Source: Squalus acanthias
Taxonomy: Eukaryota
Length of the DNA stretch: 64,000 nt
Direction of reading: 5' to 3'
Assembly: GCA_030390025.1 (NCBI GenBank)
Contig: CM059432.1
Location: 43,836,001 to 43,900,000, forward strand
A program made the position numbers and the translations under genes. The notes under the pieces are model-generated. The model did no database searches and was not told the DNA's origin. It was given only the letters and a program-made list of their open reading frames with translations. Shown here one piece after another: positions 3,401 through 59,814 of this stretch (positions are counted from its first letter, which is position 1; the number at the start of each line of letters is the position of its first letter).

Positions 3401-4168
3401 ATATTGTTTGATTGCAAACACACGGTGAACAAACCACTCAATGAAGTGAAACACTGACCTCTAAAGGTCAGAGGAGGCAACTGAAACTTAAAAATCAGAA
3501 TTGCAAGCTTTAAAGTTCAGGGTCAGGTTTAGGCTTAATGCAGGGTAATTTTGTCTAAATTACAGTTGTTTAAATATTTAAAGAAGCTGCATTTATAGAT
3601 TTTACATTTACAATTGAAGTTTTGATTGTAGAATAACTAATGGTTTGACGAAAGGCACTGCATTGGTAAGTGGTTTATAGAAAGTACTTGTGGAACGTCA
3701 TTCAAAAGGAGTATTAATGTGCAAATATATATTAGGTGGCTGAATTATTATTGTCTCACTAGATGAACAACTAATACATAGAGAGGGAAAATATTATTTG
3801 GCAATTAGTCACAATGCTAAACAGCCTCATCATTGTACAAATGCCAGATTGGAGAGGGGTTTAGGGCCAGTGTAGGCTCTCCTGATGAAAAGTAAATCTC
3901 ACACAGAACAACTAAGCTATTTATATACTCTTCATGTAAATTTTTTGGAGGGGGAATGCCAAGAAAATGTTACTCCATGTATAAGATTTAAAATCATCAA
4001 TAGTCCTTTATTTATTTTAGTGTTTAATAAATAAGGTTGAGTAGAAAACTTCAGATCACAAATGTCACTGTACTATTTTCTTTATAGTGTACTTAATATG
4101 CAAAATTCCTGTAATAGCTGCTCATCTAGTGATCCTTTGAGACCCTATAGTAATAACTCAGACACTAT

Positions 4169-4948
4169 GGCCCGGATTTTGCGGTCAGTAGCAAAGTGAC
4201 GGCGCTCGCTGTTGATCTCGAAGAAAGCTGCCCACAAAGATCTAGTGATCTTTGTGGCGTGGATTTCACCTTTCCCGACATTAATTTCATTCTGGCGTCA
4301 CCTATAGGGGATCTCTGGCGTCCAGCAACAGTGATGTCATCAAGCAGGCTAAGCAGACAATCACATTGAAAAATTCTCACAGACAGCAAACCAGGAAGTA
4401 AAATGCATTGATTATCCTTCACTTTTAATCATTTTACAGAGAGTGATATAAAGATTGGGACATATACATGAGATTAAGGTAGAAGCTGAAATATCATAAA
4501 CAAACTTGTAAAAAAAAGTTTAAATTATATTAAAACCTAAGGAATTTTTATCATAATGGAGAAATTTGACATTCCACACATATAAAATTAATTTTTCAGG
4601 GCCAGAGGGGTTGTTCAGCAGTAGTTATGGCTTAGTACAGCGTTAATACAGCGTTAAAAACCCAGTTATACCTCATTCAATAAGGTTTAACTTTTTGGGG
4701 GGGGTTTCAGCAAGATTAGAGCATAAAAAATGGCAGTCCACGTCAATTCAAATGATGTCTAAAGATTTCCATCTGCAGGGACTTCAATAGCGCACCCTGT
4801 GGAGGAGCAGGGAATCACTGACAGCAACTTCTAGATTTCTGCGTTTAACTGTGCATGTGCGGACACCAGAAGTTGCTGTCAGTTTCACAGAGTAATGACG
4901 GTGAATGCTGACAGTTTTGCCGTCATTACAACCCCAAAAGTCTGGACC
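4169..4948. mobile_element. Non-autonomous Harbinger-like MITE
   Basis: TIRs ggcccggattttg / caaaagtctggacc; flanking trinucleotides tat/aat. Confidence 0.65.
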
Positions 4949-6525
4949 AATATATTTGCACATTAATATTCCTTTTAAATGGCATTCCACAAATACTTTT
5001 CACAAACCACATTATCAAAATAATTGCAAAATGCCTTGTGTATGCGTCTGCATATGGTTTAGTCATCAGAGTAAATTCTGCTGTATTTCAGTAATAATTT
5101 ATGAAATTATACTATTTGTGAGCATTCATTTCTGAGCCCTCAATCTGACTTCTAGCACCCCACTTAATACTGTTGCAAGATGTGTGGTTTTCCTATAAAC
5201 CGCTCCATGACTTTTGATGTTCATGACACAAGAGGCATGATTTTCCCAGCTGCAGTAGCTGTAATACTGCTGACAATACCATGGTTTTACACCTGGCAGG
5301 AACAGTAATGAGCTAGTACAAAGTTTCCAATTTTCTCTTGTGCCCAAGCTCCAGGACTTGAACCGTGCATCGCAAATGTCTTTTGGTAACTTTTTTTTTC
5401 CATTCCCTTAGGGGCACCACAGCCAAGCAGTATAGGTCACTGGATAGTTGTAGCATTTCCCACCACTGCCACTCACTGCAATTGATGAACTCAGCAAGGA
5501 CCAGAGAATGAAGCTGGAGCCTTCCTGAACCAACCACTGCACTTACCCACTCCGCCAACATGACAGCTCATTTTGTAAATTTTAAGCAAATGTTTGAAAG
5601 AATTTTGAATAGTTTATATACGTATTATTATTGTAATCATTGATTCCTGTTCTCTGGTGTTTTCTTGGTAGCAGATAAAGAAAAAGGCCTCTGCCGCGTG
5701 AAGGTATGAAAAGGTGGATAATAACATTAATTTTGGCTATCGAGTGATAAGATTACGTTCATGCCCACTATTCCCCATACAGAGACATGCCAATCTACAG
5801 GGGCTGTCAGAGAATAGTACTAACCAATGGCCAAGCACACTCCTCGAATAAGGAAGAGAACAATCACAGACAAGTCCGCACCACTGCTTTTGTGCGCCTC
5901 CTAATGCTCAGTCAAGGAGTGACATTACCTAAAGCTTCAAAAAAAAGTCACTGCTTCACTCTCTTATTCAGGCAATAATGCAAAGAGCAGAAAACAAAAT
6001 AATAAATAAAAAGCGTCAGAGAAAACAAATAGTAAATTTGGGATCTACACCACCATGGGAAAAATTGAAATTATGGGAAGAACTGGATTCACCACAACCA
6101 TAGTTTATAACGAATCTGCTTCTGTTGCCCTGGGGAAAATCTTACCCAGCTTTCCCACGTTAGGTAGCAGAGCAGCTGCTATTCTTTTCTTGGGGAAATG
6201 CCAACGAAATGTTTTGAATGAACACTAGAATAGGACTATCCAGTAGAATGCAAAATCTCCCTTGAGGTGTGATTTGTGTTATCAAGCCTTTTCTCATATA
6301 AAGTACTTATATGGAAATGGGGTCAGCATGCAGGGGGAGGACTGAGTCCCAAAGCAGCTGTATTACTATATTTGGCATAAGTTCAATTAAATTATTGAAC
6401 TTCTGAGGGAATTCAATAATAAGTGAGAGAGTAAGTGTGAGAATGAGGCAAGAAAAAGAGGATTAGGAAAAAAGTGACGGTAAAGGAATAAAAAATGGCT
6501 TCATTTGGCATGTTTAGGAAACCAA

Positions 6526-8117
6526 GGGGGACAAATTAGTGTGGTTTGCACCACATGTTAGCGCCAGGAGATGGTGCTGAAATGCCGTTGACAGCTATAA
6601 CGACAGCTGATGCCGGTTCCAACGCCGCATGCCATATCGGTAGTGCTGCTGGTAACCTCGATCGGTAGGGAGCTCGCCATGATAGAGGTTGTGACATCAG
6701 TGAGTGTGTAATGCTCACTGGACACCCGATCTCTAACATTGGATTTAGCCACTTACCTTAATGGCAGTGCAGAACAACGACAGGGAGAGCTGGCTGCAGC
6801 AGCGATATTCAAAGGCACCATCCCCAATCAGCTGTACCTGACAGGGTTTTGCAGTTTCAGTGTCTGTTTTCTACTTCCTGCAACTGAAACAGCTCTCTTC
6901 AGTTATTTCAAGTTTTTTTGGTGACAGGGAGTGTTCATTCAAGTGCAGAAGTCACTCATTATTTGTTAAAGGCTTCTGCTCACAACACTTCCTCACAGTC
7001 ATGGGGGCTGCGGGATTACCTCAGGAGGACGATGAGGCAGAGGAGGACGAGGAGGAAGAGAACGAGGAGAAAGAGGACGAACAGGAGGGAGGGCGGAGGC
7101 AGCAAGATAATCGACCTTCTTGACGGGCTGTCCATGACCGGCTCATCAGACTCCAATTCACATGAATGAAACCCCAGATCCCCATAGCTCACCACATCCC
7201 CATCATACAATCCCTGTCTCACGCAATATCACAGTGTCCTCCTGGGCGCAAAGGTGAAATGAGAGAGGCCACAAAATATTCCAAACACCATTAATAAATG
7301 TATCTATAAAAATATCACACATATGACATGAATTCTAATAACTAATGACCCTTGTGGCTGCCATAGTTGAATAGCTGTCATTGTGTGTGAGGTGTGAGAT
7401 GTGGGTGTGAGTGTTGCTAGGTAGAGATTGTAGGTGAGTGAGTGCTGGGGGTGTGGTACATTGAGCAGTGTGTGACGCTTCTGGTACAGATGATGGTATG
7501 TAGCATTTGTTGAAGGCTTCACTCACCCTGACCACCTGTGTGAGCTCGTTAAACTTCCTCCTGTACTGGGTATGGGACCTGGGGACCACAGAGCTGCCTG
7601 TGACGTGGTGTGCCACCTCCCTCCACATAGTCCGCCAGACTTGTGGCGAGGGTCTCCTGCCAGTTGGTACAGGACCACCCACCTTCTCTCCACCATTAAA
7701 ACCAATGCCTCCAAAGCTTCATCGGAAAACCTCTGGGCTCTCTCCCTATGGGTGGTCATCTGCCATCAGCATTTGTAAATAAGTGCTCCTTCTCTTTGTC
7801 CTCCTTCTTATGGTTGTTGAGGCAGCTGTACACCCAACAATGCTGAGAATGAGGTGCTGCAGCATCAATGGCCTCTCTAAGCAATGAAAAAGCCTGTGGC
7901 AATCATTACTTGCAATTAGACTATACCCGATATTGGTCCATCTTTTAAGTGTAACGCCAATGAGCTTTGATTTTTAGATTAGATTTATGTCTGCAATCAT
8001 TTTAATGAGGAGTGAGGACGAATTTTGCATGCAGTCTGGACGATTTTCACCTGGCACTACTTAACCATTTTTGGTCTAAACACCGCCCATGCCTTGGCTA
8101 TAACGAATTTCTAGCCC
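6526..8117 (+). mobile_element. Internally deleted PIF/Harbinger element H1
   Basis: TIRs gggggacaaattag / cgaatttctagccc; TSD caa/taa; retains the acidic transposase C-terminus (7001-7167) and Myb exon 1 on the minus strand. Confidence 0.8.
7526..7766 (-). pseudogene. Harbinger Myb/SANT-like protein exon 1 (frameshifted)
   Basis: RERAQRFSDEALEALV...MWREVAHHV...RRKFNELTQVVR followed by a gtgagt donor. Confidence 0.8.
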
Positions 8118-9424: not shown

Positions 9425-10100
9425 GGCCCGGATATTCCGATCCCTACGGGTGGGTACGCACTGTGTACCCACCCGTAGGGACATCGGAAATGCCGGTTTC
9501 AAGTATACTGAAAACCGGCATTTCCGATCTGTCAAGAATGATCTTGACAGATCCTCCGGCTGCCCTGGAGAAGGGCCTCTGCGGGCGGATAGTTCCGCTT
9601 TTTGGAGACCCTCCGCCCGCAGAAAACCCTTACAATTCTTATGCCTGGTAAAAGCATAAGACCTGCTTTTACCAGGATAAGATTTGAAAAAAGTAAAAAT
9701 ACTTTAAAAAAAAGGTAAGTTCATTTTTAGCCCCGTAAAAAACTTTAATTATTTTTTTCAAAAAATTAAATTTTTGTTTAAAATGTTTAATTTATTGTAA
9801 TTTCAAGTCATTTTAAAAATGTGATTTAAAAAAAAATTTATTTATAGTTTTACTATGTTTTTGGGGTGATCTCCATTCATATATTTGACAGGTCTTCCTG
9901 TCAAGTGTATGAAGGGAGATTCCCTTCTGTGATTGGCTCCCCATGGCCCACGTGATCCCAGGGACGCTGCGAACTACATGCGCCTCTGGGATACGTGGGT
10001 CCTGCACACTTGGAGTTTGGAGAGGCCCAGGTAAGGGCGTAGATTTTTCCAGATCGCAGGCCTCCGCACGCGGGAGGCCTGCGATCGGAAAATACGGGCC
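9425..10100. mobile_element. Harbinger MITE
   Basis: TIRs ggcccggatattccgatc / gatcggaaaatacgggcc; TSD att/att; related (inverted) to 19721-20484. Confidence 0.8.
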
Positions 10101-11204: not shown

Positions 11205-11354
11205 GGAGTAGATTCTAACTTTCACCGCCAGGAAGAAATCTGGTGACAGCGATCGGCCACTGAAGTCAATGGAAAGGAAAATCGGGCGGAGTATAGAACT
11301 GATGATTCGCAGTCACCAACTTTGTGCCCAGCGTGGAAGTTTAAAATCTACCCC
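11205..11354. mobile_element. 150-bp Harbinger MITE
   Basis: TIRs ggagtagattctaa / ttaaaatctacccc; TSD aat/aat. Confidence 0.7.
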
Positions 11355-12010: not shown

Positions 12011-12749
12011 CTATTAAACCTTCTTCTGCTAATACTGGTTGTTATCAGTTCTGGGCCTATATTTGTGCTGTCACACACAATGCCACTTCCTACTGGTCGA
12101 CTCTCTGGCATGCCAACAGATTGACACAAAAAGATGTAAAAAAGAAGTTTAAAAAGTCCATTTGAAATAAATTTTAAATATTTATTTCAAAATAGGTTCA
12201 GGTACAGTGAGTCACAGGGGAAGAAATTCAGTTGGTTAGCACCTCCCATTAGCGCCTGGCAGGAGTGCTAACGGGGCACTAATGAAGTAGTGCCGGGGCG
12301 CGGCAAATCCAGTGCCGCACGTCAAATCCAGTCGCCCCTTAGCGCCGCCACTAACAGAGAGTGCCTGGGGCTTTAGCACCAGGCAGATCACGATGTTAGT
12401 GAGCGTGCAACACTCACTGAGCGCCCGATCTGCCAAATTGATTATCGCCCCCTGCCTTAGCGCCTTGCCCCGACAATGACAGGAAGAGGAAGCGTGAAGC
12501 AGCCGGATGGCAGCTCCAGGGGCGATATTTAAAGGGATCAGTCACAGCTGCCAGGTTGGTGCTGTTTCACTGCTTCCTTATCAGTTTGCGATTGTGCAAG
12601 AGTTCAATTCAGTCATTTGAAGGTTCTTTAGTATCAGGAGTGTTGTGGCTACTAAAAATTTGTTACATTTATTCTGACAAAATTTCAAAGTGCTACACAT
12701 TGTTACATTAATGCAGGCTGTACTGTCAGTCGACTTTGCCCTCTAGGAT

Positions 12750-12860
12750 CTAAGAACATAAGAACATAAGAAATAGGAGCAGGAGTAGTCCAATCGGCCC
12801 CTCGAGCCTGCTCCGCCATTCAATGAGATCATGGCTGATCTGATCCAACCTCAACTCTAA
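12750..12860 (-). mobile_element. Short 5'-truncated CR1 tail
   Basis: (taagaaca)n plus CR1 3' stem-loop. Confidence 0.8.
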
Positions 12861-13318
12861 AGAACACAAGAAGTACTGCGGAGGGAGCAGAGGCAGCAAG
12901 AAAGATTGCAAGATGTGACCAGAGGAAGGAGCCATCAGGACTCTCAACAGGAGGCCTTACCTTCCTAGGGTATTCCGAGAGCACTTCTCCTACCTCCAAT
13001 TAAACGAGGAGCAATGCATTACAAGGCTCCGCTTCAGCAAAGATGTGGTCACAGAGCTCTGCCACCTCCTGCAACCAGACCTCGAGCCTCAGATCAGGTC
13101 GACCACGGCTCTCTCAGTGGCAGTCAAGGTCACCGTCGCCCTCAATTTCTTTGCCAGTGGTTCCTTCCAGTCTGCAACAGGAGATATAGCGAACATCTTG
13201 CAGCTCATCATCCACCGCTACATCCAGGAGGTGACAGAGGCTCTCTACAGTAGGAGAAGGGATTACATTACCTTCCCTATCACCAGAGAGAAGCAAGACA
13301 AACGTGCATGTGGCTTTG

Positions 13319-16300
13319 GGGAATCACAAATCAGAGCGTGGCAGGAAGGGACAGAGTGTGTGGAGTAAAAGGTAAAGTGGTAAAAAGTGAGAAAGCAGGA
13401 ACTAAGTGCCACAAAGCATATTTGAAAGTTCTCTATCTGAATGCACGTAGCATTCGTAACAAAATAGACGAGTTAATGGCACAAATAACTACATATGGTT
13501 ATGATATTGTGGCCATTACAGAAACATGGCTGCAGGGTGACAATGCCTGGGAATTAAACATACCAGGTTATTTAACGATCAGGAAGGACAGGCAGGAAGG
13601 AAGGGGAGGTGGGGTGGCTATGTTAATAAAGGAAGGAATCACTGTAATACAGAGTAATGATATTGGGTCAAAAAATCATGATAATGAAACAGTTTGGGTG
13701 GAGATAAGGAATAATAAGGGGAAAAAAACACTAGTGGGCGTAGTCTATAGGCCTCCGAACAGTTGCAACTCTGTTGGACGGAGTATCAATCAGGAAATAG
13801 TTGAGGCATGTAATAAGGGAACATCTATAATTATGGGGGATTTTAACTATCATATTAATTGGACAAATCAAATGGGGCAGGGCTGCCTTGAGGATGAGTT
13901 CATTGAGTGTATTAGGGATGGGTTTCTTGAGCAGTATGTAACTGAACCGACCAGGGGGCAAGCAACCTTAGATCTGGTCCAGTGTAACGAGACAGGATTA
14001 ATTAAAAATGTCCTAGTAAAGGATCCCCTTGGAATGAGTGACCATAACATGGTTGAATTCCATATTCAATTAGAGGGTGAGAAGGTTGGATCTCAAACAA
14101 GCGTGCTAAGCTTGAATAAAGGAGACTATGAAGGTATGCGAGCGGAATTGAGTAGAGTGGATTGGGAAAATAGATTAAAGGGTAAGACGACACATGATCA
14201 GTGGTGTACATTCAAGGAGTTATTTTACAACTTCCAAAAAATATATATTCCACTGAAAAGAAAAGGGTGTAAAAGAAAGGACAGTCATCCGTGGCTAAGT
14301 AAAGAAATTAAGGATAGTATTCGACTAAAAACAAGGGCATATAAGGTAGCGAAATCTAGTGGGAGGACAGAGGATTGGGAAAACTTTAAAAGGCAGCAAA
14401 AAATAACAAAAAGATTGATTAAGAAAGGGAAGATAGATTATGAAAGTAAATTAGCAAAAAATATAAAAACAGATAGTAAGAGTTTTTATAGTTATATAAA
14501 AAGAAAAAGGGTGGCTAAAGTAAATGTTGGTCCTTTAGAGGATGAGACCGGGAAATTAATGGTGGGAAATATGGAGATGGCAAAAACACTGAATCAATAT
14601 TTTGTATCAGTCTTTACAGTAGAGGACACTAAGAATATCCCAACACTGGACAAACAGGGGGCTATAGGGGGAGAGGAGCTAAACACGATCAAAATCACTA
14701 AGGAAGTGGTACTCGGTAAAATAATGGGACTCAAGGCGGATAAATCACCTGGACCTGATGGCTTACATCCTAGAGTCTTGAAGGAAGTGGCGGTAGGGAT
14801 TGTAAATGCATTGGTAATAATTTTTCAAAACTCCCTGGATTCGCTAAGGTCCCGGCAGACTGGAAAACTGCTAATGTAACACCCTTATTTAAAAAGGGCA
14901 GTAGACAGAAGGCTGGTAACTATAGACCGGTTAGCCTAACATCTGTGGTAGGTAAAATTTTGGAGTCCATTATTAAGGAAACAGTAACAGGACATTTGGA
15001 TAATCATAATTTAATAGGACAAAGTCAGCATGGTTTTACGAAGGGGAAGTCATGTTTGACAAATTTGCTGGAGTTCTTTGAGGAAGTAACATATAGAGTG
15101 GATAAAGGGGAACCAGTGGACGTAGTGTATTTAGACTTCCAAAAGGCATTTGACAAGGTGCCACACAAAAGATTATTGCTTAAGGTAAAAAATCACGGGA
15201 TTGGGGGTAATATTCTGGCATGGATAGAGGATTGGCTATCTAACAGAAAGCAAAGAGTTGGGATAAATGGTTCATTCTCAGACTGGCAATCAGTAACTAG
15301 TGGTGTTCCACAGGGGTCAGTGCTGGGTCCCCAACTCTTTACAATCTATATTAACGATTTGGAGGAAGGGACCAAGTGTAACATATCAAAATTTGCAGAT
15401 GATACAAAGATGGGAGGGAAAGTAGTGAGTGAGGAGGACATAAAAAACCTGCAAGGGGACATAGACAGGCTAAGTAAGTGGGCAGAGATTTGGCAGATGG
15501 AATACAACACTGGAAAGTGTGAGGTGATGCACTTTGGCAGGAAAAATCCTAGAGCAATTTATTATCTTAATGGCAAGAAACTGGAGAGTACTGAAGTGCA
15601 AAGGGATCTGGGGGTCCTGGTGCACGAAACTCAAAAGGTTAGTATGCAGGTGCAGCAAGTGATTAAGAAGGCAAATGGAATGTTGGCTTTCATTGCTAGG
15701 GGGATAGAATATAAAAATAGGGAGGTATTGCTTCAGTTGTACAAGGTATTGGTGAGACCGCACCTGGAATACTGCATACAGTTTTGGTGTCCTTACTTAA
15801 GAAAAGACATACTTGCTCTCGAGGCAGTGCAAAAAAGGTTCACTCGGTTAATCCCGGGGATGAGGGGGTGGTCATATGAGGAGAGGTTGGGTAGATTGGG
15901 ACTCTACTCATTGGAGTTCAGAAGAATGAGAGGCGATCTTATTGAAACATATAAGATTGTGAAGGGGTTGGATCGGGTGGATGCGGGGAGGATGTTCCCG
16001 ATGACGGGTGAGACTAGAACTAGGGGACATAGTCTTAGAATAAGGGGCTGCTCTTTCAAAACTGAGATGAGGAGGAACTACTTCACTCAGAGGGTGGTAG
16101 GTCCACGGAATATGCTGCCACAAAAAGCTGTAGAAGCTACATCATTAAATAAATTTAAAACAGAAATAGACAGTTTCCTAGAAGTAAAGGGCATTAAGGG
16201 TTACGGGGAGCGGGCAGGAATTTGGACATGAGTCTAGGTTCGGATCGGTCATGGCCCTATGGGTAGCGGAGCGGGCCCAGGGACCGTGTAGCCTGATTCT

Positions 16301-16470
16301 GCTCCTATTTCGTGTGTGCAATTCTGTTAGATACAGGAGATGGTTCTGTGATAGATAGTAGATTGGCGGTTAGGATCAGATCAGCCATGATCTTATTGAA
16401 TGGCGGAGCAGGCTCGAGGGGCCGATTGGCCTACTCCTGCTCCTATTTCTTATGTTCTTATGTTCTTATG
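13319..16470 (+). mobile_element. CR1 (HER1-like) LINE with near-complete ORF2 (APE endonuclease + RT), one frameshift near 14850
   Basis: YLNARS, ITETW, GVVYRPP, MGDFN and SDHN endonuclease motifs; PQGSVLGP and FADDT RT motifs; (ttcttatg)3 tail. Confidence 0.95.
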
Positions 16471-18119
16471 ATAGCGGGCTTCTGCATGGTGCAGGGATTG
16501 TGGGACCACCTCAGGAGGAGGAAGAGGGAGAGGAGTAGGAGGACAAGGACAAGGACAAGGAGGAAGAGGAAGATGAGGAAGAGGAGGAGGAGGAGAAACA
16601 AGAGCAAGGGAGGAGGCAGCCACTCAATCAGTCTTCTGGAAGGGCGGTCCGTGACCGCTTCATCAGACTGTGGTTCCAATAAATTAAACCCCAGATCCCC
16701 GTTGCTCACCACATCATTCCATTCCTGTCGCAGGCCATATCACAGCGCAAAAATGAATTGAGAGACACCACAAAATCATCCAAAGCCAATTAATAAATTT
16801 ATGAATAATCAATGAGCACATATTTACAACAACAACATTCATTATTCTCCCTTGTGCAATCCCTCAGTGCCTGTCATTACTGTGCCTTTTCCAATCTAGA
16901 GCTCCTACGAAGTGTTGGCCCAGTGGCTGCAGCACGGCGGGTGGAAGGCTGCCAAGTGTCCGTGCAGGAGACTTCAAATGACCTTGCAGGAAGCTCTTGA
17001 CCAGCTCTGGGCCTGGAAGGCCCGGCTGTAGACTGCACCACCTCAGCCTGGGCGGCAGCAGTCTAGGCTGGCTGGATGACAGGCAGCGACAAGGGTAATG
17101 GCGGAGTGCCAGTGGTGGGAGCAAGAACACTGCCATCCTGAGAGAGGACAGCAGCTCCCTGCTCCACTGACCCACTGCCACTCCCCCGGGGCAGCACCTC
17201 AGCATCACTACCAATCTGCTGGAGCACAGATTGCTGGCCTGCTGAGAAGGCGTGAAAGCCCCGGTGGACGGTGGTCAACCCAGCCACGATGGCAGCAGTC
17301 AGAGCTTGCGTGGCATCAAGCTGAGACTGCATGAGAGCAGTCTGAGATTCGATGGCACCAACCATAGACTGCATTACAGCACTAAGACGTTGCGTCGTTT
17401 CCGCCTGTGCTGCAATGGAAGCTGCGACATCGCACATCACACGCAGCATGAGGTCTGGTTCCCCTACGATCTCTCTGGGAGACCACCATCCTTTGCAGAC
17501 TGCAAATGATGGGCTCCATGGTGTGCGCAGAGCTCTGTGCAATGTTGGAGGCGGACTCCTCCACGCTCCTTACCATTGCCGAGAGGCTCTCAGGGCACCC
17601 TTGCCATTGCACCTATCATCTCCGTGTGCATGCCCTTCACCCTTCTTCTATAGGCCTACCCATTCAAGTCCTCATCGGAGTCCTGTGCAGCAGAACTCGC
17701 ACACAAATTCGCCCTCCGGGGAGCTGGCCCCCGAGCTACCCTTTCCCCCTGGCTTGCTGCAGCCCACTCGTCCCCAATGCCTCACCCTGTGCAGATCCTG
17801 CTACTATACTAGCCTCTAAAGATTGCGTAGGGCCAGTGTCTGAGCTGGTGCCTGCGGGTGAGACATGCAGTGACGCGGTGTGTTCTTCCTCCTCCTCTTC
17901 TTCCACCTCACTCTCTGCAGTGCCATCAGGGAAAGTCTGCTCAGGTGCTTGCTCATTATCTGAAAGCATAAAGGCACAAGAGTCGGGTTAAGGTGAGGAG
18001 AGGGGGCGGGAAGAGAGAAAGGCATGCATACAGCATGATTAGCTGGAAAGTGGGAAAGGCTTGTGGGGTGAGGGGGAAGTGGGATGTGAGAAGAATGAGT
18101 AGGGATAAACATACCATTG

Positions 18120-21096
18120 TTAGAACATAACAACATAAGAAATAGGAGCAGGAGTAGGCCATTCGACCCTTTGAGCCTGCTCTGCCATTCAATGAGATCA
18201 TGGCTGATCTTCTGCCTCAACTCCATTCATCGGCCCTATCGCCATATCCCTTGATGCCCTTACTAGTCAGGAATCTATCGACTTCTGTTTTGAATATAGC
18301 CAATGACTGAGCCTCCACAGCCCTCTGGGGTAGTGAATTCTCTTCTCATCTCAGTCCTGAATGGCCTACCCTTTATCCTGAGGCTGTGGCCCCTGGTTCT
18401 AGACTCCCCAGCCAAGGGAAACATTCTCCCAGCATCCACCCTGTCAAGCCCTGTAATAATTTTGTATGCTTCAATGAGATCCCCTCTCATTCTTCTGAAT
18501 TCAAGAGAATACAGGCCTAGTTTACTCAATCTCTTCTCATACAACAGTCCCGCTATCCCAGGAATCAATCTCGTGAACCTTCGTTGCACTCCCTCTATGG
18601 CAAGTATATCCTTCCTTAGGTAAGGAGACCAAAATTGTACACAGTACTCCAGGTGTGGTCTCACCAAGGCCTGATATAATTGGAGTAAGACTTCTTTACT
18701 CCTGTACTCAAATCCTCTTGTAATGAAGGCCAGCATACCATTTGCCTTCCTAATGGCTTGCTGCACCTGCACATTTACTTTCTCATGTACAAGGACTCCC
18801 AGGTCCCTTTGAGCATCTGCATTCCCCAATCTTTCACCATTTAGGAAATACTCTGCCTTTCTGTTTTTTCTACCAAAGTGGATAACTTCACATTTATCCA
18901 CATTATATTCCATCTGCCATGTTCTCGCCCACTCACTGAGCCTGTCGAGATCCCCTTGAAGACTCTTCACATTCTCTTCACAACTGACACTCCCACCTAG
19001 CTTTGTATCATCAGCAAATTTGGAAATGTTACATTTAGTCCCCTCATCCAAATCATTGATATAGATTGTGAATAGCTCGGGCCCAAGCACCGATCCTTGC
19101 GGTACCCCACTAGTCACAGCCTGTCATCCTGAAAAAGACCCGTTTATCCCTACTCTTTGTTTTCTGTCTGTTAACCAATTCTCAATCCATGCTAGTATAT
19201 TACCCCCAATTCCATGTGCCCTAACTTTGTTCACCAACCTCTTGTGTGGGACCTTATCGAAGGCCTTCTGAAAATCCAAATACACCACATCTACCTGTTC
19301 CTCTTTGTCTACTCCACTAGTTACATCCTCAAAGAACTCCAATAGGTTTGTTAAACAGGATTTCCCTTTCATAAATCCATGTTGACTCTGCCCAATCTTA
19401 CTATTAGTTTCTAAGTGCCCAGTTATTACATCCTTTATAATAGATTCCAGCATTTTCCCAACTACTGATGTGAGGCTAACAGGCCTGTAGTTCCCCGTTT
19501 TCTCTCTCCCTCCTTTCTTAAATAGCGGGGTTACATTTGCTATCCTCCAATCTGCAGGAACCATTCCAGAATCTATAGAATTTTGGAAGATGACAACCAA
19601 TGCGTCCACTATCCCAATGGCCACCTCTTTCAAAACCCTAGGATGTAGGTCATCCGGTCCTTGGGAGTTATCGACTTTTAGTTCCATTAATTTTGCTAGT
19701 ACTGTTTTTTTCCTAATGTTGGCCCAGAAATTCGCCTCTCCGGCTTGCCACTGGGGTAAGGATCGCGCGCGCTCTTACCTACAGCGCCTGCTGTTGTGTT
19801 TTGGGCCCACAGGAACTTCGGGTCCTGGGCCTCTCCCAACTGCCGGCGCGCAGTGCTTGCGTGTTCCAGGGGCGCAGTTAGTGCGATGCGTCCCCTGGGA
19901 TCATGTGGGCTATGGAGAGCCAATGGCAGCAGACCATCTTTCATTCATAGATTTGACAGGAGACCTGTCAAATCTGTGAATTGAAATCAGCCCCAAAAGA
20001 ACAGCTAAACTTATAATAATTTTTTTAAAAAACCATCACATTTATAAAATAACTATAGTTAAATAAATTAACCACTTTAAACAAAAATTTTAATTTTTGA
20101 AAAAATTAAAATACTTTTTAAAAGTTATAAAAATAAAAATACTTTTCTTTAAAGTATCTAAAAAAGATAAACCTATTGAAAAAAATTTAAAATTATACTT
20201 AATTAACCACTTACCTTGTTCAAAATGGGTCTTACGCCTCCTTTTCATTAGCGTAGTATCTTCAATACTTACCCTCGCGTAGAAACCTGAAAAAAAATCT
20301 AAGTGTGCTGCGTGCGTGCAGCCTCTAGCGTGCACGCGGTTCACCTAGGAACCGCCCCCTTCACCATACCGGAAGTTCCGGTTTCCCGCGCATGCGCAGT
20401 GCATGCAGGAAACCGGCACTTCGGGAAGCTATACGGGTGAGTACAGAGCGCGTACTCACCCGGGAAGGGCCGAATTTTTGGGCCAGTAATTTCTTTAAGT
20501 TCCTCATTCTCGCCACACCCTTGGTTTTCTTGTATTTCTGGGAGGTTTTTTGTGTCTTCCTCCGTGAAGACAGAAACAAAGTATTTATTTAATTTCTCGA
20601 CCATTTCCTCATTCCCCGTTATAAATTCTCCCGTCTCTGACTGTAAAGGACCTACATTTACCTTCACCAGTCTTTTCCTTTTCACATACCTATAGAAGCT
20701 TTTACAATCCGTTTTTATATTTTTTGCTAGTTTGTGCTCATTCCATTTATTCCATTTTCCTATTCTTTATCAATTTCTTGGTCCCCCTTTGCTGATTTCT
20801 AAAAAGATCCCAATCCTCAGGCTGACCGCTTTTTCTGGCAACTTTATAAGCTTCCTCCTTTGACTTAATACTAGCTTTAATTTCTTTTGTTAGCCATGGT
20901 TGGATCACTTTTCCTTTTGGGTTTTTACGCCCTAGAGGAATATATGTTTGTTGCAAATTATGCATTATTTCCTTGAATGTTAGCCATTGTATGTCCACCT
21001 TCATACCTTTTAGTGTAGTCTCCCAATCCTCCATGGCCGACTTGTCCCTCATACCCTTGTAGTTTCCTCTGTTTAGATTGAAGACCTTAGTTTCAG
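18120..21096 (-). mobile_element. CR1 LINE (5'-truncated) inserted at the exon 2 donor of the H2 Myb gene
   Basis: RT ORF pieces 18275-19687 and 20341-21052; TSD attg (18116-18119 / 21097-21100). Confidence 0.92.
19721..20484. mobile_element. Harbinger MITE nested in CR1
   Basis: TIRs ggcccagaaattcg / cgaatttttgggcc; CR1 reading frame resumes on either side. Confidence 0.8.
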
Positions 21097-22199
21097 ATTG
21101 GACCCAAAGGGGTCAACATCACTGGTGGCCACAGCACCCACCACCTGGTGCCCAATGATTTGCAGCACTCTTTCTTCCAGCTCAGAAAGTGGTTGGGTGT
21201 CAAGTTGTCCCCAGCCTGTGCGCTCCTGCTCCCTCCTGTTGTGAGCGACCTTGGCCTGCAAGAGAAAGGAAAGTGTGTGAGTGAATGTGGAGCAATGTGT
21301 TTGGGAGATGTGCCTGCCATAGTTGAACAGCTGTCATTGTGTGCAAGGTGTGAGATGTGGGTGTGAGTGTTGGTCGGTAGAGATTGTTGGTGGGTGAGTG
21401 TTGGGGGTCTCGTGCTTTGGGCAGTGTTTGCAGACTGAGGTTCAGATGGTGGTATGTAGCATTTGTTGAAGCATTGACTCACCCTGACCACCCGAATGAG
21501 GTCGTTAAATTTCTTCCTGCACTGTGTGTGGGTTCTGGGGACCACAGTGCTGCCAGAGACGTGCTGCACTACCTCCCTCCACATGGTGCGGAAGACTTGT
21601 GGCGAGGGCCTCCTGCCACTTGCCGGGTAGAGCACCGCCCTCCATCCCTCCACAGTGAAAACCAAAGCCTCCAATGCTTCATCGCAGAATCTGCAGGCTC
21701 TCTCCCTGGGGTGTGGATCTGCCATAATGACACCTCCTTCAGTGGTCTGGTTCCTTCTCCTTGGTCTTCTGCTGCTTGCTGAGACAGCTGCAGAACCAGC
21801 AATGCTGAGAATGAGGTTCTGCAGCATGATTGAACCTCCCCTTTAAGGACTGGAAAGAGCCTGTGGCAATGATGACTAGCGATTCGACTGCACCTGAAGT
21901 TGCTTAGAGCTTTGAGTCTAACGCCACTGAGCTAGGCTGTTAGCGCTTGATTTAGCGCTCCAGTCCTTTCTTAGAGCGCTGACACTTAATTTAGCTTGCA
22001 GCAAGATTCATTAGTGCCTGGCGCTAAATCTCAAACTTTTCAGAAGTTAGCGCCCATTCTTGGGCTGTAATGAATTTCTCCCCCATATTGTCCTAGCACC
22101 CATATCAGCAAACTCTAAGGGACTAAGTGGCTAGCTCTTTCAGAGAGCTGGTACAGGTGCGATGGGCCAAATGGCCTCCTCTGTACCATAAAATTCTAT

Positions 22200-33838: not shown

Positions 33839-34211
33839 CTAAACAATCGACATTTATTATATGAGTCATTTACATGTGGCTGATACCAAACAGGCCTTGA
33901 AGCAACTGTGTCACCCCAGGCCTTAACATCTGTTTTATTACACAAAACAGATATCTAAGAATCTCCATACATTTCACAAATGTTTTCATTAAAAACTGAA
34001 AATCAAAATGTTCTCCAATAACAGAGATTTTGAAGATGGTTACAGGGATAGTAATTGAACGTCTATGACAGTAGACAAACTGGAAAAGAGAAAAGATATG
34101 TGCATGGAAAGCAGTTTAACAGTTTGATCTCAGTGTTTTACGAATTGTATAATTAAGATTACTTATAATGGTAATACCGCCAATATGAATCTTATTCTGT
34201 TGTGGATTTGA

Positions 34212-34367
34212 GGGGGTGGATTTCCACGGAATTCTCCCGTTCATCTCCAGCAGATGAGCCATATAAACCCTGGAAATGCAGTGTAAACAGAGCTTACACT
34301 ATTTTTCCAGCTCTTCTGCCAAAGTTATGTTGGACAATCAGGAGAACCCCTGTGGAAATTCTCCCCC
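34212..34367. mobile_element. ~155-bp Harbinger-like MITE
   Basis: TIRs gggggtggatttccac / gtggaaattctccccc. Confidence 0.65.
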
Positions 34368-40179: not shown

Positions 40180-40352
40180 ATGAAACCTCAGATCCCCGTT
40201 GCTCACCACATCCCCATCAACCACATCCCCATCATACCATCCCTCTGTTACGGAACATCACTGCCTCCTCCTGGGCACAAAGCTGAAATGAGAGCCACCA
40301 GAAACCAAACATTCCAAACAAAATTAATAAGTTTATCACTATTCAATCAACA

Positions 40353-42283: not shown

Positions 42284-42661
42284 GGCTTCAGGCTGACTGA
42301 CAATGAGGCGCTGCTGCATCAAAGCACCTCCCCTTTAAGTAGCGCAGGGAGCCTAGGCCTAAAATTATTGGCCATTAGACTGCACCTGATATTGGCCCAT
42401 CCTGTTGAGTGCTAAGCCAAACAGCAGCGTGTTTAGCACTGAGATCAGCGCTGCAATCATTATAATGAGCAGGTAGCATGAATGTTGCATGCTGCCTGGA
42501 TAACTTTCAACGGGCGCAGGCAAATAGCGTTGGCCCTTGACAACGCCCATTTTCGGGCCGATATCCTGTTTCTAGGCCAGCATGTCTACACCACGAAGGA
42601 GGGAACAGAAAAGGCAAAAAGTGAAACCTTAAGGTAGGACAAGCAAAACCAGAAGGGTAAG

Positions 42662-43822: not shown

Positions 43823-44256
43823 TAAGTGGTACCATTGTTTTTGTTCAGGATCCATTGTCAGATGTACTGACAGGGAACATGTTATAGATAGCAGGATTGA
43901 GGGCGTGTTATAAAGATACCTAAAGGAGGTACTAGGATCCAAAATAATGGCCTGAATTTTGCGGTGGGTATGATGGCGTACTCAGAGAGTACGTTGTCAT
44001 ACCGCCTTTGAAATATACCGCAAGTTCAGGATTTCCGCATGCGCTTCCCACAACTGGCGAGTTGCAGCGGCAGCTCTTTCACAGAACCGACACAGGCACG
44101 ATGGGCTGAATGGCCTCCTTCTGTGCTGTATGATTCTATGATTTTTCCCATGTGTTTTAAATCTATCCACATAGCGTGTGATTTTTTTGTGTTGATTTTC
44201 CTAGGGCTTCAGATAGGGGTGCAATTGTGGTGCATTCTCAGTGAACTGGACCTAAT

Positions 44257-44947
44257 GGGCCAAATCATCACGGAAAAATAACAGCATGTTAACAACACAC
44301 GCCATTATTAATGCACAAACGGGCCAGCAAGTTCAGGGAATGAAAAGATACGGTGTGAGTTGAGAATCCTTCACACCACTCCTCCGTTTGCCTCTCACAA
44401 ATGCCATCTCGCCCTTAGCCTCCCCGTTAATTTTAAGAACTTGCTGGATTGGCACATAAATTGCCCATTAAACTCGCCGCAGAAAGTTAAGGTTCATAAT
44501 TCATAGCATAAGTACCTTTTTCAATGATAATTGTGAATGCCAATCAATCTCTCCGGCCGAGAAGGGGAACAATCTAAAATGTTGAATCTCATTCCTGCAT
44601 GTAATAACTTTTTTCTTACTTTTCCTTTCTGTCTTTTTTTCTCTCTGTCTTAATCCAATCTTCCTTTCCCTCTCTTTATTTTTCTTTCTGTACAAGATTT
44701 GACTCCAACTCACCCTCTTTCTCTGTCATTCCTTTTTCTTTCTCAATCCTTAAAGCTCACTGATTAAGGAGATACACTGTTGTCCCATCGTTCAGAGGTC
44801 CCAGATGCCCCGTTGCCCTCGCCACGATGTTATCAGCTCGCACTTCCAGCGAGTTACGGCGCAATACATATCGAGCTGAAGGGTGCAGGAAAATGTCTAA
44901 CTCATGGCGCACGCCTCGAGATGCCCCGCTCCAGCAAGATTTGGCCC
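44257..44947. mobile_element. Harbinger-like MITE
   Basis: TIR gggccaaatc / gatttggccc; flanks aat/att. Confidence 0.65.
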
Positions 44948-49266: not shown

Positions 49267-49585
49267 CCGAGGGACTGCCTAAGAAGAAGAAGACACAGCA
49301 CTCATATATTGTACACATCAAAATGAGTCTTAGTGCAAATAAGGCAATGCAACAGTTATAGTAACAGGTATGTGTAGACAGTTATGTACTGTTTGGTAGC
49401 AATATATAACCTGGGTTAAAGACCCTTCTTTGTGAGGGGAGGTAGTAGTGGTCACTGCTTGTGAGCGTTAGAGAGGTGGAACAACTAATACAGAGACTGC
49501 ACCTGGAAGTGGAAAAGTATCAAAATGTGTGAGTTCATTCCACCCTACTATTCAAACCCAAATACAAAATAACATAATTAACAGT

Positions 49586-49745
49586 CAGCAGGTTAGGCAG
49601 TATCTGTGGAGAGAGAAACAGTTAACGTTTCAGGTCGATGAAGGGACTCTGTTTTTCTCTCCACAGATGCTGCCTGACCTGTTGAGTGTTTCCAGCATTT
49701 TCTGTTTTTATTTCAGCTTTCCAGCATCTGCAGTATTTTGCTTTT
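49586..49745. repeat. Foldback repeat, possibly Penelope-like terminal repeat; other copies at 38332-38398 and 59200-59306
   Basis: 36-bp inverted arms 49586-49621 / 49649-49684. Confidence 0.6.
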
Positions 49746-49871: not shown

Positions 49872-50698
49872 AGGGCTGGATTTTGTCAAGGGGGACGTGA
49901 TGGAGGCGGGACTCCCACTTTTTGGGTTGTAGTCCCGCCTCCATTGACTTGTGGCCAACCCACTGTATTTTCCCTTGATTGACCCGCCCAGCGGGCTTAG
50001 CAGGCCAATCAAGGGTCCCTTGGATATAGGTGACGTCAGCCATTGAAATTTCATCTGTCAAGAGCCTTTGACAGATGAAATTTCAGCGTTTGACAGCTCT
50101 GTGAAGCTTTCAAACACTGACAATATGATTTCTAACTTGAGTCCCTGTACTTAGACTCAGTTAGAAATCAATCCAGCACAGAAAGCAGAGACTGCAGCTT
50201 TTGACAGCTCCGCGGCCATTCTGCTTTCTGTGCCGTGGATGTGAGGGACTCCCGACACCTTAGCTTGCAGGACAAAGTTAAGGTAAGTACAAGTTCTTAA
50301 AACACTTTACACACACCAAACACACTTACCTCTGCACTCATGCACCCATCACTCACCTGCACACCGGACATCTCGACCCCTCCAAGCCCTCCAGACCGAC
50401 GGTCCGCCTTGCTAAATCGGCGTGGTTCGAACCTGTCGGGAAGCCCACACTTCAGGACCAAAAATAGGGATTAGGCAAAAAACTGCCTGTTAACTACCTG
50501 TTAACAGGCAGTTTATTGGCACTAATCCCCTTCCCGCCTCGGGGAGGCAGGTCCCAGCACAGGTCGGGTACCCGCCTCCTGTGAAACTGGCATGGAGGCG
50601 GGTTGGGGGCGGGATGGGTTCGGGACCCCCGAATCTGCTATTTTCCCACCCCACACGCCTCCAAACCCGCCTCCACGGGTCAATGAAAATTCTGCCCT
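49872..50698. mobile_element. Harbinger-like MITE
   Basis: TIRs agggctggatttt / aaaattctgccct; TSD agt/agt (or TA if the ends are shifted by one base). Confidence 0.7.
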
Positions 50699-57205: not shown

Positions 57206-57207
57206 AT

Positions 57208-59196
57208 CAGAGGGGCAAAGAGATGGTATGAGAATAGAATGGCAGCTAACATAAAAGGTAATTCAAAAGTCTTCTATAGGCATATAAATAGTAAACGGGT
57301 AGGAAGAGGAGGGGTGGGGCCGATTCGGGACCAAAAAGGAGACCTGCGCATGGAGACAGAGGGTATGGCAGAGGTATAAAATGAATACTTTGCATCAGTC
57401 TTCACCAAGGAAGAAGATGCTGCCATAGACATAGTGAAGGAGGAGGTAGTGGAGATACTGAAAGGGATAAGAATTGATAAAGATGAGGTACTAGAAAGGC
57501 TGGCTGTACTTAAAGTAGGTAAGTCACCAAGACCAGATGGAATGGATCCTAGGACGCTGAGGGAAGTAAAGGAAGAAATCGCGGAGGTACTGGTCATAAT
57601 CTTCCAATCCTCCTTAGAAACGAGGGTGGTGCCAGAGGACTGGAGAATTGCAAATGTTGCACCCTTGTTCAAAAAAGGGTGTAAAGATAAACTCAGCAAA
57701 TGCAGGCCAGTCAGTTTAATCTCGGTAGTGGGGAACCTTTTAGGAACAATAATCAGGGACAAAATTAACAGTCACTTGGACAAGTGTGAATTAATTAAGG
57801 AAAGCCAGCATGGATTTGTTAAAGGCAAATCGTGTTTAACCAACTTGATCGAGTTTTTTGATGAGGTAGCAGAGAGGGTTGATGAGGGCAATGCGCTTGA
57901 TGTGGTGTACATGGATTTCCAAAAGGCGTTTGATAAAGTGCCACATAATAGGCTTGCCAGCAAAGTTGAAGCCCATGGAATAAAAGGGACAATGGCAGCA
58001 TTGGTACGAAATTGGCTAAGTGACAGGAAACAGAGAGTGGTGGTGAACGGTTGTTTTTCGGACTGGAGGAAGGTATACAGTGGTGTTCCCCAGGGGTCGG
58101 TTCTAGGAACACTGCTTTTCTTGATATACAGGAATCCCGCCCCAACCACGGTTTTGCCATACGCGGATTTCAAGTATACACGGTTTCCTCTCTGCGACAA
58201 CGTTTGCCAACCACGGCAGTGAATTTTGCGTATACGCGGTTTTTAATTTAGGATTAAGGTAAATAACATGATTTTATTGCTTTTATATTCTTTTTTATTG
58301 TGTTATTTGAACATTTATACTGTATTTGCCAACCATGGTTTTACTAACCACGGGGGTTTTCAGGGACGTATCCCCCGTGGTTGGGGAGGGATTACTGTAT
58401 ATTAATGACTTGGATGTGGTTGTACAATTTGCAGATGACACAAACCTTGGAAGTATAGTGAACAGTGAGGAGGATAGTGATAGACTTCAAGAGAACATAG
58501 ATTTTTGTTAGTTAAGGGTATGCAGGGAAAAACAAAAGCAAAATACTGCGGATGCTGGCGGAATGGGCGGATACGTGGCAGATGAAATTTAACGCAGAAA
58601 AGTGCGAAGTGATACATTTTGGTAGAAAGAATGAAGAGAGGAAATATAAACTAAAGGGTACAATTCTAAAAGGGGTGCATGAACAGAGAGACCTAGGGGT
58701 ATATGTGCACAAATCGCTGAAGGTGGCAGGGCAGGTTGAGAAAGCAGTTAAAAAAGCTTATGGGATCCTGGGCTTCATGAATAGAGGTATAGAGTACAAA
58801 AACGTGGAAATTATGATGAACCTGTATAAAACACTGGTTCGGCCTCAACTGGAGTATTGTGTCCAATTCTGGGCATCACACTTTAGGAAGGATGTGAAGG
58901 CCTTAGAGAGGGTGCAGAAAAGATTTACGAGAATGATTCCAGGGATGAGGGACTTCGGTCACGTGGATAGATTGGAGAAGCAGTCTGGCAACGCAAAGGC
59001 AACAACACTATACTCCTCCCAGAACAAGTAGGCATAAACTTCAAATTAGAGCTGGGCCATTCAGAGAAGGCCTTCTTCACACAAAGGGTAGTGGAAATCG
59101 GGAACTCTCTCCGCAACAAGCTGTTGTGGCTTTTGAGTCAATTGAAAATGTCAAAACTGAGATTGAAAGATTTTTGTTAGTTAAGGGTATGCAGGG
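57208..59196 (+). mobile_element. CR1 LINE, interrupted
   Basis: ORFs 57434-58222 and 58552-59031 with RT motifs. Confidence 0.9.
58129..58397. mobile_element. Tc1/mariner (pogo/Tigger-like) MITE, 269 bp
   Basis: 23-bp TIR cag(g/t)aatccc(g/t)ccccaaccacgg; TA TSD; inserted in the CR1 LIYINDL codons. Confidence 0.85.
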
Positions 59197-59814
59197 AAAA
59201 ACAAAAGCAAAATACTGCGGATGCTGGAAATCTGAAATAAAAACAGAAAATGCTGGAAATACTCAGCAAGTCAGGCAGCATCTGTGGAGAGAGAAACAGA
59301 GTTAACGGCTGTGATTTTATCAGCACTCAGAGGGCGGGTTTGGTGGCGGGGCAGAGGTTAAAATCTTTTAGATTGACGGCGGGTTGCGATCCCGCTGTCA
59401 ACCCGCCTCCACGCTACTTTACCAAGTGCTGGCTCTGGGAGTCCCGATCAGTCCCACCACCAAGCTTGTTAACTGCCTGGATAAGCCGATTTTAACAGGG
59501 TATTTCAATTATTGTACATGTTCAGCGTGTTCCATGCTGTTCGCAAACCACGCCAGCTGATTGTGCCGGGTTCACCAAGTGCCTGACTTCTTGACAGCTG
59601 CAGCTCCAGCATAAAAACGGAGCTCTAACATGGCTCACTCACAGATGACAGAACTTTGTTTTTTCAGGTGTTGGAACACTTTTTGCAGGTCTACTGATCT
59701 TGTAAGTGGTGAAGCTGAGATCCATCTCCACTGTGACCTCCTGGGAAAACCCTCTCCCCACATTGACTGAGTGCGTATAACTTCTAGTCCTCAACTGACA
59801 TATCTACCAGCAGC

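Follow-up and report, generated by a model that had tools for sequence, protein, structure and literature searches.

For a cut-and-paste transposon, a target of 15 bp is unusually long; to our knowledge, such a target is known from one zebrafish family. The Harbinger-type insertions of the DNA examined here, a 64,000-nt window of Squalus acanthias in which all positions are counted, raise the question of whether a target of this kind is shared among several shark families and whether its specificity lies in the flanks or in the duplicated central triplet (TSD). The original prediction assigned nine elements (the listed elements below) to a palindromic target, ARAYAY-NNN-RTRTYT, with a relaxed 3-bp TSD. 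All nine left ends and left flanks were found where they had been placed, and each element has a right end followed by the right flank that had been proposed. These elements, the unlisted ones and their gene remnants are given here, with scores out of 12 flank positions where a site fits the motif described below in part.

4169..4948, Harbinger-type element of 780 bp, non-autonomous; 3-mers differing by one base (TAT/AAT); site agacac-[T/A]AT-atattt
6526..8117, unlisted family A derivative with a Myb-like gene remnant; 3-mers CAA/TAA; poor site ggaaac..tattct (5/12)
9425..10100, 676-bp MITE of family B; TSD ATT; site aagtat-ATT-attgca
11205..11354, MITE, 150 bp; TSD AAT; site aaacat-AAT-gtaatt
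12217..22084, family A autonomous-type element enlarged by nested insertions; 3-mers ACA/ATA; site tgagtc..ttgtcc
12937..13320, plus strand, N-terminal piece of a Harbinger transposase within 12217-22084; 70% to a sawshark HARBI1-like protein
19721..20484, unlisted family B MITE inside a LINE; 3-mers GTT/AGT; poor site cctaat..aatttc (5/12)
21096..21842, minus strand, Myb/SANT-like second-gene remnant of 12217-22084
22200..23092, family A MITE in a retroelement tail, 893 bp; TSD TAT; site aaattc-TAT-gattct
23868..24491, MITE, 624 bp; TSD ATT; site ttaaat-ATT-ctgttt
24692..25415, MITE with a perfect 14-nt TIR, 724 bp; TSD CTA; site aaacag-CTA-gtgtac
26602..27442, 841-bp MITE of family C; TSD ACT; site aagatc-ACT-atgtct
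33066..34367, group of four TIR-like ends, related to each other and of uncertain pairing (33066, 33199, 34213, 34367); outer 3-mers ATT/ATG
34858..34870, plus strand, orphan TIR-like left end preceded by aaacat-AAT (6/6 motif match)
38319..38331, minus strand, orphan terminus in a short dispersed repeat, at a repeat position shared with the 59307 terminus
38589..42578, complete element of the two-gene type, 3990 bp long and akin to family A; TSD AGC; site aaggat-AGC-atgtct
39074..40161, plus strand, broken transposase of the 38589-42578 element
43949..44947, unlisted element, 999 bp; 3-mers AAT/ATT; site caaaat..gtttca (7/12)
49575..49650, plus strand, the short repeat in unbroken form, with the site used at 38331 and 59307 empty
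49873..50697, unlisted family C MITE, reversed; 3-mers GTA/TAG; the worst site (2/12)
59307..59319, plus strand, left terminus belonging to family C; preceding bases agagtt-AAC
59939..61008, plus strand, frameshifted Harbinger transposase downstream of 59307

The 3-bp TSDs that had been claimed throughout are identical in seven of the nine listed elements (ATT, AAT, TAT, ATT, CTA, ACT and AGC), whereas those at 4169 and 12217 each carry a one-base mismatch that the claim had passed over. The chance of at least seven identical TSDs in nine is about 1e-11 to 4e-10, a figure qualified by the right ends having been located via the flanks of the original prediction. When ends were paired by best TIR, blind to the TSD, the same right end was unique for six of the nine, second-ranked for one (26602) and tied for two (38589 and 4169); the element at 4169, with a TIR identity of 9/14, is the weakest of the listed nine. 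An enumeration blind to the flanks (TIR matrix applied to either end, at least 9/14 TIR identity, identical 3-mer, less than 5 kb) returned seven pairs, exactly the seven listed elements with a perfect TSD, and the same enumeration returned 0, 1, 0, 0 and 0 pairs from shuffled windows. Sixteen of the 18 termini of the listed elements start with GG, and eight with the GGG usual for NuwaI. Empty-site paralogues are present in the window for three of the 14 rebuilt sites: those at 11733-11786 and 49210-49263 confirm the 3-bp length of the TSD at 22200, and that at 47561-47698 aligns gaplessly to the 19721 site, confirming a 3-bp duplication there. An inverted paralogue of the 4169 site (3663-3778) exceeds the rebuilt empty site by 4 nt and leaves that TSD unconfirmed. 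No partner ends for 34858, 38331 and 59307 were found within the window. Among the 15 joints listed of 1273 in public-run contigs, none skipped a whole element, and since contigs of relatives span the junctions at 23868, 24491, 24692, 25415 and 27442, no orthologous empty site was obtained. Metagenome contigs with a family A terminus (three loci) were discarded because their similarity is limited to an 18-23-nt match.

Flank positions were numbered outwards from the TSD, six per half-site, and scored with the motif AAASAY, which was derived from other family A copies. In the 18 half-sites of the listed elements, A occupies outward positions 2, 4 and 6 in 14, 13 and 13 cases and the TSD-adjacent base is C in seven and T in eight, while positions 7-12 are flat. 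Left-right complementarity is 23/54 at positions 1-6 (p 0.004) versus 16/54 at positions 7-12 (p 0.27). The seven flank-blind pairs score 4.14/6 against 2.14 for AT-matched sequence (0/200,000), bearing out a palindromic 15-bp target across families, and the family-A-derived motif scores 4.25/6 on the 12 half-sites of the six listed elements outside family A (0/200,000). Register 0 is best (4.11), with 3.2-3.4 at shifts of 2 and 1.7-2.3 at other shifts. The consensus first proposed was right in its non-random flanks, but its outward position 3 is S rather than Y and its centre is not NNN. Five unlisted pairs, none with an identical TSD, score 2.5/6 (p 0.13-0.17); this set was picked by hand and left out the ends at 33199, 34213, 3336, 1189, 5233/6147 and 51399. 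A blind ranking of unlisted TIR-like sites, which includes those of the left-out ends that pass its thresholds, gave 2.2-2.5 versus 2.05 (p 0.02-0.45, seven thresholds). Sites typically match at 7-10 of the 12 flank positions and some at far fewer; the preference is loose and statistical, unlisted ends with broken duplications match it weakly, and the listed nine are the best-preserved subset of a collection whose other ends fit poorly.

The family of the 22200 MITE (family A) is very abundant, and its other copies give a consensus at contig ends; runs from three to four organisms show such ends accumulating at 22200 and 23091. Plurality strings were taken, for family A rows only, in four public runs with 201-893 contig ends to a row; their overall agreement is 0.38-0.40, they come without per-position counts, and the runs share orthologous insertions. 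The left rows, conditioned on a non-T last base, end in AAAGAC-ATA (3/4) or AAAGAT-ATA, that is, AAAGAY before the left duplication, and the seven right rows continue after the duplication with GTGTTT (three), GTCTTT (two) or GTTTTT (two), GTSTTT thus being found in five. Beyond position 6-7 the far flanks differ in every row, so a single repeat does not account for the consensus. AAAGAC..GTGTTT is the reverse complement of the flanks AAACAC..GTCTTT published for zebrafish Harbinger3, a likeness closer than the original prediction had claimed. This independent support from outside the window covers family A alone. At 24495, three related organisms have a G, giving ATT-gtgttt, a better match to the motif than the ATT-ctgttt of the window.

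We consider it probable that the transposase prefers a two-fold symmetric target of about 15 bp, AAASAY-nnn-RTSTTT, and that the insertions are old and represent several elasmobranch Harbinger (PHIS) families together with their MITEs. The transposase would pick this target and cut it with a 3-nt stagger, so that the central triplet is duplicated; a symmetric, dimeric transpososome touching both 6-bp half-sites would account for the palindrome, and the centre would be read weakly (A/T-rich, with an A-N-T lean in some families), perhaps via its bendability.

The prediction that the TSDs are mostly neither TWA nor CWG held once termini were fixed by alignment. CWG is the centre of none of the 14 pairs and of no plurality row (the orphan end at 1786 carries CTG), and TWA is found in one copy of one of the 14 pairs. 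TNA, too, is found in one copy of one pair, unlike the NuwaII target C-TNA-G. Family A may have a modest share of TWA (3/7 right-end plurality rows), and its plurality centres change from row to row (ATA, TTA, TAA, ATT, AAA). Specificity had been placed in the flanks rather than the TSD; the flanks do carry the motif, but the centre keeps a weaker lean, the first TSD base being A or the third T in 12.5/18 cases among the listed nine (p 0.003, local base frequency 0.32). ANT accounts for four of the seven identical TSDs and occurs in at least one copy of 8/14 pairs, making it the commonest triplet class. The centre is thus A/T-rich and variable, its preference weaker than that of the flanks and not absent, and perhaps family-specific.

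The last point could be taken further, to recognition of the full 15 bp with a centre set by family (A-N-T in families B and C and the singletons, W-W-A or TWA in family A), the relaxed appearance coming from pooling and decayed TSDs. The ANT and family A TWA counts speak for this reading, as does the A1/T3 lean of 14.5/20 outside family A (p 6e-4 at 0.32) versus 3/8 within it, a split made after viewing the data; in rice mPing, moreover, the outer TSD bases are reported to matter for excision (PMC4561436). Against it, the seven identical TSDs comprise six different triplets, and since both copies agree, decay did not produce this variety; the family A plurality varies by row while the flanks stay constant, and among the window's family A members the triplets are TAT, ACA/ATA, CAA/TAA and AGC. 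We therefore regard a fixed centre for each family as rather unlikely. It is quite improbable that the zebrafish-like target belongs to family A only, with the fit of other families due to selection in the original prediction and a general A/T taste: although A+T is 0.64 around the sites, unlisted ends fit poorly and the contig-end rows show family A alone, the five flank-blind pairs outside family A score 4.1/6 against an AT-matched 2.14 (0/200,000), the signal is restricted to positions 1-6 and one register, and the relatives' G at 24495 improves the match. A hot-spot effect, in which elements kept inserting into one or a few repeats of high abundance without sequence reading by the transposase, is suggested by the shared repeat position of the termini at 38331 and 59307 and by the insertions at 22200 and 19721 in retroelements, but it is very improbable given the row-to-row differences beyond position 6-7 and the flat window positions 7-12, and the repeat site at 38331/59307 itself matches the motif at 7/12, so that this hot spot follows from the motif.

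A target read by the transposase would direct attention to the proteins. One of five transposase-region frames scanned matched PF13359 (DDE_Tnp_4, E 4.2e-31 at 60310-60810), and tblastn matches to homologues span 12937-13320 and 39074-40161, each within a listed element. For the second gene, one of five candidate frames matched PF13873 (Myb/SANT; 21096-21842, minus strand) with E 2.2e-4 and 21.6 bits, just under the cut-off of 21.7. In a quick tree of 55 homologues and four window pieces, the pieces fall in an elasmobranch clade (SH-aLRT 99) adjoining bony-fish proteins; judged by sequence, the transposases belong to an elasmobranch Harbinger clade. They are 38-50% identical to their best bony-fish relatives in the tree set, and no protein labelled Harbinger3_DR, PIF or Pangu is among the 120 homologue matches listed per search for it. 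The teleost relatives, at 341-351 aa, are consistent with the NuwaI lengths in Table S5 of Han et al. (2015), a circumstantial agreement. In the predicted model of a shark homologue, a helix-turn-helix domain (residues ~52-130) precedes an RNase-H-type core. Sequence search returned no solved Harbinger transposase (one chance row), and Foldseek at E 0.001 with this model no solved relative; the best VIA fold matches, to piggyBac (Z 9.0 with 228 aligned, rmsd 5.3) and to Tn5 (Z 8.8 with 232 aligned, rmsd 5.8), indicate a DDE fold for the model and nothing closer. Helix-turn-helix matches of sigma-4 type (Z 5-6) may reflect a common arrangement. The protein that reads the flanks would more likely be the transposase than the Myb-like protein, with the N-terminal helix-turn-helix as the candidate, because Myb is reported to bind the element's own TIRs (PMC2836001) and because families with different interiors have the target in common.

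The DDE_Tnp_4 transposase, the short TIRs and the 3-bp TSD place these elements in the Harbinger superfamily (PHIS, broad sense). Harbinger3_DR, with Harbinger3N_DR the NuwaI-2_DRer of Table S5 in Han et al. 2015 (PMC4482050), has the published target AAACACCWGGTCTTT (PMC3016246). It shares with the shark elements a 15-bp palindromic target with the flanks AAACAC..GTCTTT, read on the opposite strand, around a 3-bp centre, a DDE_Tnp_4 transposase and, probably, a Myb_DNA-bind_5-type protein. Its centre is CWG, as is the TSD of NuwaI, which includes it, whereas the shark centre is A/T-rich and variable with an A-N-T lean; moreover, the shark target, unlike that of Harbinger3_DR, is common to at least three families and to singletons, and the shark transposases form an elasmobranch clade. 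A precedent for specificity outside the TSD is SENKUSHA1 of Takifugu (NuwaII_TRub), another fish Harbinger-type element, whose target is given as C-NNN-G in Table S7 (PMC4482050): its 3-bp TSD is unconstrained between fixed flanking bases, but one base per side is reported there against six in the shark, where the adjacent base is C or T. Pangu (Harbinger2) has the TSD ANT (PMC4482050; PMC12730594), the commonest shark class, but is a separate clade whose description in the text lists no vertebrate members and has a second gene without known motif (PMC4482050), whereas the shark second gene appears Myb-like, the best relatives are vertebrate HARBI1-like proteins and ANT is no more than a lean. 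For extended targets, a length of 9 bp is reported in plants and of 15 bp in vertebrates (PMC2836001); plant PIF and mPing likewise show a symmetric preference reaching beyond the 3-bp TSD, although their 9-bp target is shorter than the shark's and centred on a strong TWA (PMC2836001, PMC4561436), the TSD of the narrow PIF/Harbinger group of Han et al. 2015, which the shark elements mostly lack. No description of shark Harbinger targets was found in the openly accessible literature, Repbase Reports apart; the logos and copy tables in supplements 2 and 3 of PMC4482050 may bear on flank logos.

PHIS elements, reported absent from sharks in Han et al. 2015 (PMC4482050), are abundant in this window, and surveys of the Etchegaray type called for study of other cartilaginous fish (PMC9179366). 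The shark preference is a variant of one already described, and the surprise is limited by a long palindromic target and fixed flanks around NNN (SENKUSHA1) being in print. That several abundant shark families share the zebrafish flanks suggests a lineage-wide, conserved property, and the TSD, which is used to classify such elements, would appear to be the more changeable part of the target; the motif also explains recurrent insertion in particular repeats. We put forward tentatively, as something short of an even chance, that target choice in vertebrate Harbingers combines a flank-reading module with the same hexamer (AAASAC) in shark and zebrafish and a separable centre preference that shifted from CWG to a loose A/T-rich or A-N-T one. 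If so, TSD-based PHIS groups would not track descent, the shark families and Harbinger3_DR would form a natural variant pair for mapping the residues involved (helix-turn-helix versus catalytic core), and there would be a concrete DNA motif to try on the domesticated HARBI1 protein.

Each of the nine Harbinger elements of the original prediction (left ends 4169, 9425, 11205, 12217, 22200, 23868, 24692, 26602 and 38589) has its left end and left flank as written, and a right end followed by the predicted right flank. Seven of them are bordered by identical 3-bp target site duplications (TSDs; ATT, AAT, TAT, ATT, CTA, ACT and AGC), and the flanking 3-mers of the other two are TAT/AAT (4169-4948) and ACA/ATA (12217-22084). 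When right ends were paired by best terminal inverted repeat (TIR), blind to the TSD, the same end was the unique choice for six of nine elements, tied for two and second-ranked for one. A flank-blind search, combining a TIR matrix trained on the 18 termini with TIR identity and an identical 3-mer, returned exactly the seven pairs with perfect TSDs; five shuffled windows gave 0, 1, 0, 0 and 0. End-to-end comparison grouped 22200, 12217, 6526 and 38589 as family A, 9425 and 19721 as family B, and 26602, 49873-50697 and 59307 as family C, the rest being singletons; in the family A end alignments (three each), conservation begins at the G-run. Empty paralogues confirmed the 3-bp duplication for 22200-23092 and the previously unlisted 19721-20484, and for the remaining 11 rebuilt empty sites no paralogue was found in the window. 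Close to the site of 4169-4948 lies an inverted duplicate that lacks the element (3663-3778 versus 4100-4168/4949-5018; 75% over 130 nt), but it does not settle the TSD there. The insertions with junctions at 23868, 24491, 24692, 25415 and 27442 are old, since contigs of relatives span those junctions (one record for 27442), and the one-base decay in two TSDs is consistent with this age.

The original description of the TSD as a relaxed NNN captured its variability, with six different triplets among the seven identical TSDs, but not its bias. An A in the first or a T in the third TSD position accounted for 12.5/18 in the nine elements (p 0.003 at a base frequency of 0.32), and A/T letters were in weak excess (22.5/27 versus 0.64 locally). 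In a post hoc split by family, the tally was 14.5/20 outside family A versus 3/8 inside. With five unlisted end pairs added (6526, 19721, 43949, 49873-50697 and 33066-34367), a CWG centre occurred in none of 14 pairs, TWA in one copy of one pair and ANT in one or both copies of eight. The claim that TSDs are mostly not TWA or CWG therefore stands, although family A may have a modest TWA share at its centre.

Outward from the TSD, the 18 half-sites (both flanks of the nine elements) have C or T at position 1 in 15, A at position 2 in 14 and never C or G, a mixed position 3, A at positions 4 and 6 in 13 each, and A or G at position 5 in 16; positions 7-12 are flat. Left-right complementarity was 23/54 at positions 1-6 (p 0.004) versus 16/54 at 7-12. 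Families were compared using the flank hexamer AAASAY, read toward the TSD and taken from the contig-end consensus of the 22200-23092 family (A). The six elements outside family A scored 4.25/6 versus 2.14 in AT-matched DNA (0 of 200,000), the assumed register scoring best, and the flank-blind set scored 4.14 for all seven and 4.1 for the five outside family A. Counting against the preference, the five additional pairs, none with an identical TSD, scored 2.5/6 (p 0.13-0.17), and unlisted TIR-like sites ranked blind, with false ends diluting them, scored 2.2-2.5 versus 2.05 (p 0.02-0.45), the four strongest ends reaching only 1-2/6. The additional pairs plus five orphan ends, a set chosen by eye, scored 3.13 (p 0.0003-0.0006), and the match per site ranged from 2 to 10 of 12. 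Flank specificity shared across families is thus borne out by the non-family-A elements, but fits weakly at the unlisted pairs and ends. The preference is real yet loose, and sharpest at intact junctions; overall, the predicted ends and flanks are confirmed, with identical 3-bp TSDs in seven of nine and non-random flanks, and the original interpretation is supported in part.

Contigs of four public runs were placed on 21950-27650. Where the sequence is single-copy, one run organism matches at ~99% (7 differing letters in 1066), and the other three are relatives at ~94-96% (48/1233; 48/744). Paralogous contigs stop by the hundred at both ends of 22200-23092. Upstream of 22200 (260, 381, 386 and 549 contigs) three of the plurality rows end in AAAGAC-ATA and the fourth in AAAGAT-ATA; beyond the right end, the plurality triplets of seven rows, with 201-893 contigs each, are ATT, TAA, TTA, TAA, ATA, AAA and ATA, followed by GTCTTT (two rows), GTGTTT (three) or GTTTTT (two). 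In these A/T-rich flanks plurality G and C count as signal; farther out the rows disagree with each other. The consensus consists of plurality strings from a single family, and the terminus rows agree at 0.38-0.40 across 30 letters; the four runs are not independent and the left rows are conditioned on a non-T last base. As predicted, the target resembles that of zebrafish Harbinger3_DR: reverse-complementing the flanks in its consensus AAACACCWGGTCTTT gives AAAGAC..GTGTTT (accessible part of PMC3016246). Base 24495, in the right flank of 23868-24491, is G in all three relatives, so that the site there reads ATT-gtgttt. The MITE families of 22200-23092 and 26602-27442 are extremely abundant in each of the four runs, with summed contig depth of 1e5-4e6 versus ~10-30 in single-copy flanks (depth is not copy number), and a common family A variant in the run contigs lacks ~22405-22620.

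The window also holds many reverse-transcriptase frames, which we take to be CR1-like LINEs, and retroelement sequence that presumably merits the label SINE tail. The 12217-22084 element is a nested stack, a two-gene Harbinger containing two inverted LINE pieces, one of which holds a family B MITE; its segment 16494-18115 resembles the interior of 38589-42578 (73%). Four related termini at 33066-34367 (33066, 33199, 34213 and 34367) could represent either a composite element or a pair of short MITEs; none of their possible pairings yields an identical TSD, and the right flank is AT-GTCTTT, the zebrafish flank shifted one base out of register. Two inverted copies of the 38331/59307 short repeat face each other at 49580-49690, forming a hairpin with 42-nt arms, and 58499-58558 is duplicated exactly at 59168-59227 (60 bp, direct).

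Among the matches listed, the window transposase pieces come closest to shark proteins that carry the label 'putative nuclease HARBI1' (identity up to 74%), which makes the host a shark or a close relative. Homologues align to broken transposases within two of the nine elements and downstream of 59307. Domain matches include DDE_Tnp_4 at 60310-60810 (E 4.2e-31) and, slightly below its cut-off, Myb_DNA-bind_5 at 21096-21842; eight of the ten frames scanned had no match. A quick tree of 55 homologues, none labelled as Harbinger3_DR, PIF or Pangu, and the four window pieces placed these pieces together with 20 proteins from sharks and rays in one clade (SH-aLRT 99), with bony-fish proteins alongside. 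In the predicted structure of a shark homologue (P0011; pLDDT 85.7) a helix-turn-helix domain precedes the DDE core; sequence and structure searches found no solved Harbinger transposase. P0088, a horn-shark protein with the annotation rho guanine nucleotide exchange factor 10, contains a Harbinger DDE domain (72% over 55% of the query), which would be either a transposase piece that became an exon or a fusion made in annotation.

In the accessible text of Han et al. 2015 (PMC4482050), PHIS elements are grouped by TSD, with HARBINGER3_DR in NuwaI (CWG) and SENKUSHA1 listed with target C|NNN|G, and are reported absent from sharks. The available portion of PMC9179366 reports none in elephant shark and recommends other cartilaginous fish for study, and that of PMC12730594 equates Pangu with Harbinger2 and places Nuwa with canonical Harbingers; the accessible parts of PMC13668399, PMC8437027, PMC9392472 and PMC5738225 held nothing further on shark targets. 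No account of Harbinger targets in sharks was found in the literature searched, which excludes Repbase Reports and subscription papers. By TSD, the window elements fall outside NuwaI, NuwaII and narrow PIF/Harbinger.

According to the accessible part of PMC2836001, Harbinger transposition requires both proteins, the Myb protein binds TIRs, and one or both proteins set target preference; the mPing model has staggered cutting at the TSD (accessible part of PMC4561436). In the window, two half-sites would be read by a two-fold symmetric complex, with the transposase helix-turn-helix, unneeded for the element's own ends, as candidate flank reader and the centre probably sensed weakly. Termini 38331 and 59307, which are different Harbinger ends, share a single position within a short dispersed repeat, an uninterrupted copy of which at ~49575-49650 shows the empty site, and they fit this mechanism because the repeat site matches 7/12 flank positions. 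These shark elements show a symmetric 15-bp preference, a 3-bp duplication, zebrafish-type flanks and a non-CWG centre; they work like zebrafish Harbinger3_DR but differ from it in the TSD.
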